In this document: in pieces, positions 89 to 14,373 of the stretch | Layout of the letters: each line of letters begins with the position of its first letter | Numbering within the stretch: the first letter of the stretch is position 1 | From: a virus | Taxonomy: Duplodnaviria > Heunggongvirae > Uroviricota > Caudoviricetes | DNA length: 17,757 nt | Virus record (IMG/VR): IMGVR_UViG_2877285697_000007 | Direction: 5' to 3' (one strand) | Notes under the pieces: model-generated | The model's input: the letters and a program-made list of their open reading frames with translations, nothing else | Told to the model about the DNA's origin: nothing | Databases searched by the model: none | Translations under genes and position numbers: made by a program

Positions 89-124
89 AAGCCCGCGATA
101 TTTTAAGCGGGCTTTTATTTTAAA
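89..124. terminator. Candidate intrinsic terminator: stem AAGCCCGC (89-96) / GCGGGCTT (107-114), 10-nt loop, then TTATTTT on the + strand
   Basis: Inverted repeat read directly from the sequence; the T-run follows the stem on the + strand only, so it fits a + strand gene upstream of the window better than tfa, whose stop is at 120-122. Could be bidirectional. Confidence 0.4.
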
Positions 125-701
125 CTTCAGGTATTACAGGCCACTCAATATCAGGTGCAGTTGATGTATCAACACGGTTCAGCAACACCCGATACTTTTT
201 CCAGGCTTCCAGCAATGAGGTTTCTTCCTCCATTGCGATTTCCAGATCTACAGCATCCTGAAGTGGCGCAATATGCTCACTGGCTACCTGCATCAGGTTG
301 TTTTTTGTTTCTTCCGCCTCCCGGATCCGGAACAGTTTTTCTGCTTCTGCATCTTTCACCCAGGCTGTGCCGTTCCACTTCTGAAACTCCCCTTCCGGGG
401 ATAACCAGGTAACATTTTCCGGTAATAAGCCGAGTTCAGAAATAAATAACGCGTCGCCGGAAGCCACGTCATAAACCGTTTTACCCCGATGGTCTTCAAC
501 AAGATGCCACGATGCCTCATCACTGTTGAAAACAGCCACGAAGCCTGCCGGAATATCTGGCGGTGCAATATCGGTACTGTTTGCTGGCAGACCTGTATGA
601 GGCGGAATATATGCATCACCTTCACCAATAAATTCATTAGTTCCGGCCAGCAGATTATAAATTGTTATGGTCCGTGGTTGTTCACTCATTCTGAATGCCA
701 T
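120..701 (-). CDS. tfa: Tail fiber assembly protein (lambda Tfa family), 193 aa
   Basis: ORF begins [12 protein letters not shown]..., matching my recollection of lambda Tfa across its length. ATG at 699-701 overlaps the stf stop (TAATG on the coding strand), the arrangement expected for coupled stf-tfa. Confidence 0.9.
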
Positions 702-10605: not shown

Positions 10606-10954
10606 TTACTGCGAAAGTTTGTTAATGGAAAGGAAGCCGCCAAAGTTGCCGACGTTATTGCGAAACTTACAGCCGCTCAGGCATTTGCTGCATTTATCCT
10701 TCGTGATATCGGAGGTCGGCTGGTCATATTCATCCGCGACCGCCGGACCGTGATAACCGCACTCATCACCGCGATAGGTCCAGGTGCAGGTATTAGCCAG
10801 CATGATGCGCCCCGGAAAAACGGCACCATCCGTTTCCGTCGGTGTGGACAACACAAAGGAGGCACTGACCGCACTCAGTTCGCTGCACTGCTCTATGCGC
10901 CAGCGGCTGATCACCTCCTGCTCCGGATCGGCGTCGCTGTTTCCGTTGACGAAG
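10606..10954 (-). pseudogene. L: Tail tip protein L, 5'-truncated: only the C-terminal ~115 codons remain
   Basis: Ends ...CSKCLSGCKFRNNVGNFGGFLSINKLSQ like lambda L. Homology starts at FVNGNSDADPEQEVISRW; the first 9 codons of the track ORF (MAKFSVPLH) are encoded by the IS911 terminal repeat. Confidence 0.85.
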
Positions 10955-11026
10955 TGAAGTGGCACACTGAATTTGGCCACCTGAACAGAGGTGATATGCT
11001 CACCTCAGAACAACACAGGTGCTCCA

Positions 11027-12195
<1,169 letters not shown>

Positions 12196-12289
12196 CCACT
12201 TCACAAATGTGCGCTGGCTATTACGGCTGTAATGGCGATTTATTGTCTTGCTATTGTTCTTATGGATCGCCTTTCTGACTGATTTCACA

Positions 12290-12318
12290 TTGGCGAGGTA
12301 ACGGTAGTTAAGTAGAAT
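12290..12318 (+). promoter_or_regulatory. Candidate sigma-70 promoter of the hok mRNA: -35 TTGGCG, 17-bp spacer, -10 TAGAAT
   Basis: Hexamers read from the sequence. It sits just upstream of GGGTGCTTGAGGCTATCTGCCTCGG (12326-12349), which resembles the 5' leader element of plasmid R1 hok mRNA as I recall it. Confidence 0.45.
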
Positions 12319-12493
12319 GGCTGCGGGTGCTTGAGGCTATCTGCCTCGGGCATGAACACCAACGGCAGATAGAGAAAAGCCCCAGTTAACATTACGCGTC
12401 CTGCAAGACGCTTAACATTAATCTGAGGCCAATTTCATGCTAGACACATGTAGGTTAGCCTCTTACGTGCCGAAAGGCAAGGAGAAGCAGGCT

Positions 12494-12649
12494 ATGAAGC
12501 AGCAAAAGGCGATGTTAATCGCCCTGATCGTCATCTGTTTAACCGTCATAGTGACGGCACTGGTAACGAGGAAAGACCTCTGCGAGGTACGAATCCGAAC
12601 CGGCCAGACGGAGGTCGCTGTCTTCACAGCTTACGAACCTGAGGAGTAA
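12494..12649 (+). CDS. hok: Hok/Gef-family type I toxin, 51 aa
   Basis: MKQQKAMLIALIVICLTVIVTALVTRKDLCEVRIRTGQTEVAVFTAYEPEE: one N-terminal transmembrane helix and the conserved DLCE motif; closest recalled paralogs are HokD/RelF and HokC/Gef. RBS AAGGAGAAG precedes the ATG. An in-frame ATG at 12437 gives a 70-aa mok-like extension. Confidence 0.85.
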   Translation: MKQQKAMLIALIVICLTVIVTALVTRKDLCEVRIRTGQTEVAVFTAYEPEE

Positions 12650-12718
12650 GAGACCCGGCGAGGGAGAAATCCCTCGCCACCTCTGATGTGGCAGGCATCC
12701 TCAACGCACCCGCACTTA

Positions 12719-12749
12719 ACCCGCTTCGGCGGGTTTTTGTTTTTATTTT
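12719..12749 (+). terminator. Intrinsic terminator of the hok transcript
   Basis: Stem ACCCGC / GCGGGT with a TTCG loop, followed by TTTTGTTTTTATTTT. Confidence 0.75.
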
Positions 12750-12865
12750 CAACGCGTTTGAAGTTCTGGACGGTGCCGGAATAGAATCAAAAATACTTAA
12801 GTAGCGCGCAGGGATAAGAGGGATGGTCCCTTAAAGGGGAGAGCTAATTATCCGGAAGGATTCTG

Positions 12866-12949
12866 ATGATGAACATCGAAGAACTGCGTAAAATTTTTTG
12901 TGAAGATGGCCTCTATGCTGTGTGCGTTGAAAATGGAAATCTTGTTTGA
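12866..12949 (+). other. Small ORF (27 codons, MMNIEELRKIFCEDGLYAVCVENGNLV) apparently truncated by IS911
   Basis: Good RBS (AAGGA, 5-nt spacer). Its stop codon TGA is the first three bases of the IS911 copy B terminal repeat, so it is either a gene remnant or a chance ORF. Confidence 0.25.
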
Positions 12950-12954
12950 AGTGG

Positions 12955-14123
<1,169 letters not shown>

Positions 14124-14373
14124 TGGAGCACCTGTGTTGTTCTGAGGTGAGCATATCACCTCTGTTCAGGTGGCCAAATTCAGTGTGCCACTTCATTGAG
14201 AACCAGCACCACAACCTCCTGTATTGGACGTACACCAGTCCTGATGAATATGAGGCTGTCTCGTCAGTGATTCAATACAACTATTGGGTATAGTTTCTCT
14301 GATTTTTTCTGTGGAAATGGGGCTCAACCACTAGTCATTTAATACGCAAAGTCCGATACAAGCTAACCTTCTA

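Follow-up and report, generated by a model that had tools for sequence, protein, structure and literature searches.

A very probably complete hok/mok/sok toxin–antitoxin module of the hokD/hokW type, with its Sok antisense gene, in a decayed lambdoid prophage

Introduction

The hok/sok system (parB) of R1 is plasmid-borne and has a proven role in post-segregational killing. Its tac, ucb and mok Shine–Dalgarno (SD) sequences, the position of its Sok promoter, its Hok protein family and its tac/fbi pairing all align with or recur in the locus described here, whereas the sequences of its leader loop and Sok hairpin differ. The R1 toxin is only distantly similar to ours. Classical R1 has its mok in a different frame from hok, unlike our locus. 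The chromosomal hokC(gef)/mokC/sokC locus of Escherichia coli K-12 has the same architecture as ours; mokC is in frame with hokC, shares its stop codon and is 57 nt (19 codons) longer. The K-12 sokC RNA is 59 nt long and its hairpin lacks an 18-nt apical extension that we found here, and an IS186 copy interrupts that locus immediately downstream of hokC.

A closer relative is hokW-sokW of Sakai prophage 5 (Sp5) and phage 933W (Takada et al., 2021; PMC8621323), which is 94% identical to our locus over 416 nt. In lambdoid prophages both occupy the early (replication/nin) region, and the −10 element of the hok promoter, tac, the Sok promoter and the Sok hairpin of Sp5 are identical to ours. The 'MokW-like' coding sequence of VT2-Sakai likewise has an in-frame mok of 19 codons, and HokW, a close relative of our Hok protein, shares 44% identity with R1 Hok (PMC8621323). 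The two loci nevertheless differ in their neighbours (rem lies downstream in our case, a YgiW/YdeI-family gene in VT2-Sakai), in the last eight Hok residues (TAYEPEE here versus VDYESEK in HokW) and in the 3' end past fbi, where Sp5 hokW lacks the terminator found in our locus. Moreover, the prophage studied here is defective and disrupted by insertion sequences, in contrast to that of hokW-sokW.

Our locus lies in a 17,757-nt stretch of Caudoviricetes DNA (IMG/VR record IMGVR_UViG_2877285697_000007), hereafter the window, to which all coordinates refer. An earlier note, made from the sequence alone, had recognized a hok locus that looked intact and had left its antisense partner Sok unplaced, guessing at a position near 12380–12480. 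Here, we place the Sok gene and compare the locus with its known relatives. In our assessment it is very probably a complete hok/mok/sok type I toxin–antitoxin module, of the hokD/hokW type of lambdoid prophages, that works by the standard mechanism.

Results

Identity of the locus

Over the 739 bp that lie between two insertion sequence (IS) copies, the window shares 99.9% identity with an uninterrupted piece of Qin-like lambdoid prophages that carries hokD and rem. This piece occurs in some 1,800 complete E. coli genomes, in which PGAP annotates hokD followed by rem, and in phage mEp460, in which the annotation reads 'MokW protein'. In the roughly 5,400 complete E. coli genomes, hok leaders are present at a median of 2 copies each. 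A single position, 12447, distinguishes our sequence from the common E. coli allele, and exact copies of 12290–12750 exist elsewhere. The impression that the hok locus is intact was borne out by this near-identity and by the predicted tac/fbi pairing and sequestration of the mok SD (see below).

Comparison with hokD (relF) of the K-12 Qin prophage is instructive. The toxin-coding sequences are identical (no nucleotide differences; PGAP also names the gene hokD in loci identical to ours), the two loci share their 3' UTR, and both are followed by rem. The homology nevertheless begins only at position 12480 of the window, and relBE occupies the upstream position in K-12. The K-12 copy therefore lacks the hok promoter, tac, ucb, the mok start and the Sok gene. 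Relative to K-12 hokD, the window holds the complete ancestral form.

The hok transcription unit and the mok frame

The elements listed in this and the following sections, their predicted folds, their homologies and the finding that the Sok promoter is identical to one validated by experiment come from sequence and computation. The plus-strand transcription unit comprises:

12290–12318, plus strand: hok promoter, with −35 TTGGCG (12290–12295), a 17-nt spacer and −10 TAGAAT (12313–12318), from the consensus scan
12326–12745, plus strand: full-length hok mRNA of about 420 nt, its +1 inferred from alignment to G1 of R1
12425–12428, plus strand: mok Shine–Dalgarno GAGG, aligning with the R1 mok SD (PMC9841398)
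12437–12649, plus strand: mok-like reading frame of 70 codons (19 plus Hok), in frame with hok, from the list of open reading frames
12494–12649 including the stop codon, plus strand: hok toxin gene, 51 aa, identical to HokD, from Pfam PF01848 and identity to K-12 hokD
12632–12635, plus strand: TACG motif at Tyr47 with a putative editable TAC codon (Tyr to Cys, TadA), from sequence context
12657–12678, plus strand: 9-bp GC-rich hairpin, from the MFE fold
12718–12745, plus strand: hok mRNA intrinsic terminator, with a 7-bp stem at 12718–12735 (5 G-C pairs) and a T-run, from the terminator scan

Our scan recovered the promoter that had been proposed by eye (TTGGCG, 17 nt, TAGAAT). The consensus match is weak on its own, since shuffled sequences give a similar number of sites (1.0 ± 1.1, against 2 promoter-like sites per 850 bp here), and the TAGAAT −10 is kept across relatives. 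The predicted 5' end of the mRNA, GGCGCUU, aligns with GGUGCUU of R1; for this alignment we used the R1 numbering G4/C5/T6 (PMC9841398). Resemblance of the leader to that of R1 had also been noted, and GCTTGAGGCTATCTGCCTC at 12329–12347 indeed aligns with the R1-type GGCGCTTGAGGCTTTCTGCC. It falls inside a plus-strand match to Rfam RF01794 at 12325–12499 that scores 115.3 bits (gathering score 59) and covers the full model, 1–157, which identifies a conserved structured hok mRNA 5' leader.

The toxin itself scores 81.6 bits against Pfam HOK_GEF (PF01848; cut-off 22) and is thus a membrane toxin of the Hok/Gef family, in agreement with the intact 51-aa gene described in the earlier note and with its nucleotide identity to K-12 hokD. 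Two further elements of that description, a strong hok ribosome-binding site and a clean intrinsic terminator, were recovered as AGGAG at 12480–12484, 9 nt ahead of the ATG at 12494, and as the 7-bp stem at 12718–12735 followed by its T-run. TadA editing of the TAC codon in K-12 hokD mRNA has been reported (Bar-Yaacov 2017; PMC5630033). By analogy with the 3' stem-loop of R1 (PMC9841398), the hairpin at 12657–12678 is probably the protective 3' stem-loop of the processed hok mRNA.

The 19-codon extension MLDTCRLASYVPKGKEKQA, which opens at the ATG at 12437, had been suspected of being a mok-like coupling frame. This reading holds: mokC and MokW are in-frame extensions of the same length, and the frame overlaps hok and has its own SD, GAGG, upstream. 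For estimates of diversity, we used 106 IMG/VR prophage loci chosen solely by their conserved tac sequence. The mok ATG is invariant in these 106 loci, and π of the mok SD across relatives is 0.006–0.015. The frame itself varies between alleles; it is mostly an in-frame extension, in one class it overlaps the hok start as ATGA, and in another it lies in a different frame. In every allele, translation from the mok ATG reaches the hok start. To judge from these sequences, the conserved feature appears to be the transit of ribosomes to the hok start and not the Mok peptide, which fits the R1 coupling model.

Predicted folding of the hok mRNA

Three elements recognized from the folds account for the predicted inactivity of the full-length RNA:

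12326–12337, plus strand: tac (translational activator element) at the mRNA 5' end, from MFE pairing with 12699–12710
12377–12383, plus strand: ucb, or anti-SD, AAGCCCC, sequestering the mok SD, from the MFE fold
12699–12710, plus strand: fbi (fold-back inhibition element), complementary to tac, from MFE pairing with 12326–12336

In the MFE prediction for 12326–12745, nucleotides 12326–12336 pair with 12699–12710, which is the tac/fbi interaction, and in the same fold the mok SD at 12425–12429 is paired with GCCCC at 12379–12383. Folding an R1-type plasmid locus in the same way, as a control, gave the equivalent tac/fbi and mok SD/ucb pairings. Long-range tac/fbi closure together with sequestration of the mok SD is therefore predicted here as in the R1-type control, and the expectation that the leader would fold into the characteristic hok mRNA structures holds at the level of prediction. 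When the RNA is truncated at its 3' end, tac pairs in the MFE fold with 12343–12353, forming a metastable hairpin instead of the tac–ucb pairing; as the R1-type control gives the same result and also fails to refold, MFE folding of truncated RNA does not discriminate. The tac–ucb duplex has a computed energy of −7.3 kcal/mol here versus −5.9 kcal/mol in the R1-type locus, the pattern being the same.

Placement of the Sok antisense gene

The minus strand carries a cis-encoded Sok gene, with its promoter inside mok, a 5' tail and a terminator hairpin:

12452–12480, minus strand: Sok promoter, with −35 TTGCCT (12480 to 12475), a 17-nt spacer and −10 TAACCT (12457 to 12452)
12375–12445, minus strand: Sok antisense RNA, 71 nt (77 nt if its 3' end is at 12369), from alignment of the sokC ends, the length of sokW and the fold
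12431–12445, minus strand: single-stranded 5' tail of Sok, 15 nt, GUCUAGCAUGAAAUU, unpaired in the MFE and centroid folds
12378–12430, minus strand: Sok terminator hairpin, 53 nt with about 23 bp and bulges, followed by UUUUCUCU, from the fold and covariation

The RNA thus runs from 12445 to 12375 and its promoter extends out to 12480, in agreement with the position guessed at in the earlier note. The mok start codon and the spacer between SD and AUG lie opposite the 5' tail, which is presumed to be the recognition element.

Three independent anchors agree on this placement, namely the sokW promoter, the ends of sokC and the fold. The native Sp5 sequence is the same as that of the window from the Sok −35 through the start site, and the 30-nt sokW probe YO-597 (PMC8621323) exactly matches 12453–12482. 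The mutagenic primer YO-421 differs from the window at four positions, all within TAGGTTA, where the primer carries CCGGCTC as an engineered −10 knockout. This mutation of the sokW −10 abolished protection from HokW, and sokW supplied in trans restored it (PMC8621323). The sokW RNA was seen by northern blot, and its complementarity to the leader was given as 71 nt (PMC8621323). As for sokC, its RefSeq 5' end, which is 9 nt inside mokC, falls on G12445 in the alignment, and its 3' end falls on 12369.

The predicted fold of the 12445 to 12375 transcript has an energy of −28.7 kcal/mol (z −5.1), and none of 200 shuffled sequences was as stable; the sense strand of the same interval reaches −17.8 kcal/mol (z −3.3). 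For the hairpin alone, the values are −26.6 kcal/mol antisense versus −17.6 kcal/mol sense. In these comparisons the antisense form is the more stable by about 9–11 kcal/mol. Among 35 distinct sequences, 98.7% of the hairpin cells are paired, against 30–47% in controls with slid 3' partners, and compensatory changes occur at four pairs. Five conserved G.U pairs would be A.C mismatches if read on the sense strand. Since both strands form mirror-image hairpins, the covariation fits the mok SD/ucb hairpin of the hok mRNA equally well, and the support that is specific to the antisense strand comes from the G.U asymmetry and the energy difference only. A similar reservation applies to the promoter, the −35 of which is invariant and the −10 of which has a π of 0.07 in the 106 loci: this conservation is confounded, as the same bases form the SD-proximal hairpin of hok and the mok codons/dcb on the sense strand (PMC9841398).

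Promoter scans and Rfam searches

Two of the checks that the earlier note had suggested could easily mislead. A consensus promoter scan of the minus strand found nothing and did not pick up the Sok promoter, the −10 of which, TAACCT, fits the consensus at three of six positions. As the validated sokW promoter shares this weak −10, we do not read the null scan as absence. Promoter prediction on the minus strand thus failed as a consensus scan and succeeded as an alignment to the validated sokW promoter.

The suggested covariance search with the hok and sok families of Rfam also gave a divided answer. Rfam has no separate hok family, and the consensus of RF01794, named 'sok', runs from the 5' end of the hok mRNA to the hok AUG. 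In our extract of the K-12 hokC locus, RF01794 matches the minus strand at 502–654 while the RefSeq sokC lies on the plus strand at 553–611; the match falls on the strand opposite the annotated sokC, which means that the model is in the sense of the hok mRNA. The search therefore succeeded for the leader (115 bits, plus strand) and not for the antisense RNA. We considered the plus-strand RF01794 match as evidence for an antisense RNA and rejected it; it supports the leader only. Taken alone, the Rfam check would be a misleading positive for Sok, and strand calls taken from the 'sok' family are inverted, since the family reports the hok-sense strand.

Diversity of the Sok tail among relatives

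An earlier diversity sample had been biased, its loci having been picked for an identical Hok protein, and the estimate was redone on the 106 leader-chosen loci. In these, the free 5' tail of Sok (12430–12436 plus 12440–12445) has a π of 0.40–0.47, as compared with 0.058 at hok third-codon positions, 0.11–0.13 in the remaining leader and 0.000 at both the mok ATG and the Sok −35. The tail is thus about seven times more variable than hok synonymous sites, and the 16 nt at 12430–12445 rank second of 315 sliding windows by diversity. The variants fall into about 8–10 discrete mosaic alleles; the window has CAAUUUCAUGCUAGAC and sokW has another, the sokW probe YO-592 differing from the window at 6 of 30 positions in the region of the Sok 5' tail and mok start. 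Hypervariability of the Sok tail is a property of the family and is not particular to the window.

It is tempting to suggest that the 15–16 nt of the Sok tail and the complementary SD–AUG region of mok form an allelic specificity cassette, the diversity of which is kept by selection, and we consider this possible while holding it slightly less probable than its negation. If this is true, modules with differing recognition sequences could share a cell, each prophage hok/sok pair remaining addictive on its own, without cross-protection. Alternatively, the diversity of the tail could stem from relaxed constraint and recombination. Among co-resident hok copies, three of four informative same-genome pairs differ in the Sok tail and one has the same tail (chance identity 0.116), a comparison that at four pairs has no power. 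We found no literature specifically on variation in Sok specificity.

The IS911 copies and the history of the segment

The hok segment, 743 bp at 12204–12946, is enclosed by two IS copies:

10955–12203, plus strand: IS911-family insertion sequence, left copy, with HTH_Tnp_1 and rve domains and 99.4% identity to annotated IS911
12947–14195, minus strand: IS911-family insertion sequence, right copy, inverted, truncating rem after codon 27
12204–12206, no strand assigned: CAA, one of the two parts of a 3-bp target-site duplication, with TTG at 14196–14198 as its inverted counterpart

The two copies form an inverted repeat of 1249 nt with 100% identity. An exact search for the IS/hok junction gave no match among species-representative genomes, and none of the complete E. 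coli genomes shares it; conceivably, as a guess, the source is Shigella or an IS-rich E. coli. Both CAA (12204–12206) and TTG (14196–14198) map to one and the same TTG, at 1601–1603 of an uninterrupted relative. Beyond the right copy, 14196–16896 matches the HAD/NUDIX/DUF977/O region of an E. coli prophage at 99.9% identity; in that prophage, hokD-rem comes directly next, in the opposite orientation to that seen here. The TTG pattern is the mark left by an IS insertion that duplicated 3 bp, after which recombination between the two inverted copies inverted the segment. No duplication is shared by the remaining junctions, AAG (10952–10954) and GTT (12944–12946), which join the truncated rem to phage tail genes; all that lay between the 3' part of rem and the tail region has therefore been deleted.

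We also considered a composite transposon of the form IS911-hok/sok-IS911 and rejected it, as the outer flanks, AAG at 10952–10954 and TTG at 14196–14198, form no direct duplication. As the outer TTG matches the inverted inner CAA, the structure arose in place, by insertion and then inversion.

Discussion

The module is a known system in its full form, and its biology does not depart from the standard hok/sok mechanism. Transcription in the source strain, 3' processing, RNase III cleavage and toxicity would be expected here by analogy with R1 and sokW, and the steps that we propose are modelled on R1 (PMC9841398) and sokW (PMC8621323). The plus-strand promoter would give rise to a hok mRNA of about 420 nt that is translationally inert, since tac pairs with fbi and the ribosome-binding site of mok is sequestered by the upstream GCCCC box. 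Slow trimming from the 3' end would remove fbi, allowing the RNA to refold and expose the mok SD and start codon; translation of the 19-codon mok leader would then bring ribosomes to hok, and the 51-aa membrane toxin would be made. From the minus strand, an unstable Sok of about 71 nt would be produced constitutively, with its free 5' tail complementary to the SD–AUG region of mok. Its pairing with the processed mRNA would block translation of mok, hence of hok, and mark the duplex for cleavage by RNase III. Should transcription of the module stop, Sok would decay first and the stable mRNA would be translated, so that the cell would be killed or arrested.

Since Sok can be placed exactly, the toxin gene is almost certainly regulated. 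The opposite reading, an orphaned toxin that has no functional Sok and is harmless through mRNA folding or low transcription, could draw on the minus-strand scan, which gave no promoter, and on the Rfam 'sok' match, which lies on the sense strand and hence is no evidence of an antisense gene. It is hardly credible, however, in view of a Sok promoter identical to the validated one of sokW, of annotated sokC ends that align with Sok here, of the stability of the Sok hairpin with its U-tail (z −5.1) and of G.U pairs in that hairpin that are conserved in a strand-specific manner. The flanking IS911 copies might instead have rewired expression, read-through from the left adding sense hok RNA and transcription from the right adding a long antisense RNA, in which case regulation would be unlike that in the ancestral prophage. 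The transposase genes of both copies do point inward to the segment, the hok terminator has no T-run on the minus strand, and the segment has been flipped with respect to the prophage's early rightward operon. Nevertheless, the transcription unit is untouched, as 86 bp separate the hok promoter, and about 200 bp the terminator, from the IS ends; a terminator-like hairpin is present at 12217–12236, and our promoter scan found no hybrid outward promoter at an IS end. Transcription of IS3-family transposase genes is, moreover, normally weak, and we regard rewiring as very unlikely.

A more serious alternative to a working, regulated module is that the locus is structurally intact and physiologically silent, both RNAs being made while the module cannot be triggered, for instance owing to inefficient 3' processing or refolding; it would then be an inert passenger of a dead prophage and no active addiction or defence element. 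The prophage is indeed heavily decayed, with rem truncated and the DNA from there to the tail genes deleted. Activation of HokW in Sp5 needed prophage induction (PMC8621323), and the remnant studied here probably cannot be induced. In addition, structurally intact chromosomal hok loci gave no post-segregational killing in earlier tests (Pedersen and Gerdes, 1999, as summarized in the bioRxiv paper 10.1101/2025.08.07.668861). Against silence stands the closest characterised relative, hokW-sokW, which at 94% identity is a functional toxin–antitoxin pair (PMC8621323). The locus itself bears no disabling change; 12447 is its sole difference from the common allele, and exact copies of it occur elsewhere. 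On balance, we consider a silent locus rather unlikely, and a complete module acting by the standard mechanism remains our preferred reading.

The hokD-type toxin gene of the window can accordingly be annotated as part of the complete, Sok-regulated form, unlike the truncated orphan of K-12, which settles the annotation question. The exact Sok coordinates should be of use, since the public annotation of identical loci gives the hokD coding sequence only.

As a separate observation, what survives between the IS911 copies of this decayed prophage is a small toxin–antitoxin segment (12204–12946), as would be expected for an addictive module.

Variability of the Sok 5′ tail and of the mok frame

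The predicted single-stranded 5′ tail of the Sok antisense RNA (window 12430-12445) is hypervariable between prophage hok loci that are otherwise near-identical (L008-L210). The sequence lying under this tail is the spacer between the mok Shine-Dalgarno sequence and AUG, together with the first mok codons. Nucleotide diversity, calculated from 106 IMG/VR prophage loci chosen by their conserved tac sequence only, reaches 0.40-0.47 in the Sok tail as compared with 0.058 at hok synonymous positions, and it is 0 at both the mok ATG and the Sok -35 element. The tail variants are discrete and form about 8-10 mosaic alleles, which may represent specificity alleles.

The mok reading frame also varies between alleles (L009, L019, L028 and similar loci; L005; L006). 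In the majority it is a 19-codon extension in frame with hok; in one class the mok stop codon overlaps the hok start codon as ATGA, and another has a long frame different from that of hok. The conserved feature across mok alleles is translation as far as the hok start.

A small hairpin, GCCGAAAGGC (window 12466-12479), follows the mok start and precedes the hok Shine-Dalgarno sequence; it covaries in relatives (GCC...GGC versus ACC...GGT plus one extra base). This change coincides with an alternative class of Sok promoter, in which a -35 TTGACC and a -10 TAATCT are separated by an 18-nt spacer.

The Rfam ‘sok antitoxin’ model, RF01794, is oriented in the sense of the hok mRNA (window 12325-12499), and in the E. 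coli K-12 hokC locus its match (L088 502-654) lies on the strand opposite to the sokC annotated in RefSeq. Strand calls based on RF01794 are therefore inverted.

In the toxin gene itself, the TAC codon for Hok Tyr47 sits in a TACG motif (window 12632-12635). The Tyr47 codon of the K-12 hokD mRNA has been reported to undergo A-to-I editing by TadA, changing Tyr to Cys (PMC5630033); such editing would give the Hok toxin a second cysteine.

Rearrangement between IS911 copies

The 743-bp hok/sok-rem′ segment is flanked by two inverted, 100% identical copies of an IS911-family element (window 10955-14198). A 3-bp target duplication is split between CAA at 12204-12206 and TTG at 14196-14198, and this arrangement, compared with an uninterrupted prophage, shows that IS-IS recombination inverted the segment. 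The remaining two IS junctions in this interval lack a target duplication in their junction sequences; they mark a large deletion that begins in the 3′ part of rem and reaches the tail genes.

Further elements were noted in the window:

12758-12787 (+), second promoter-like site (TTGAAG, 18 nt, TAGAAT) upstream of the rem remnant
12866-12946, 5′ remnant of rem, 27 codons, truncated by the right-hand IS copy
160-358 (-), full-length match to Rfam IS009 (RF02111), 226 bits

The RF02111 match falls within a 193-codon ORF (120-701, minus strand) in the tail-fibre end of the remnant prophage.
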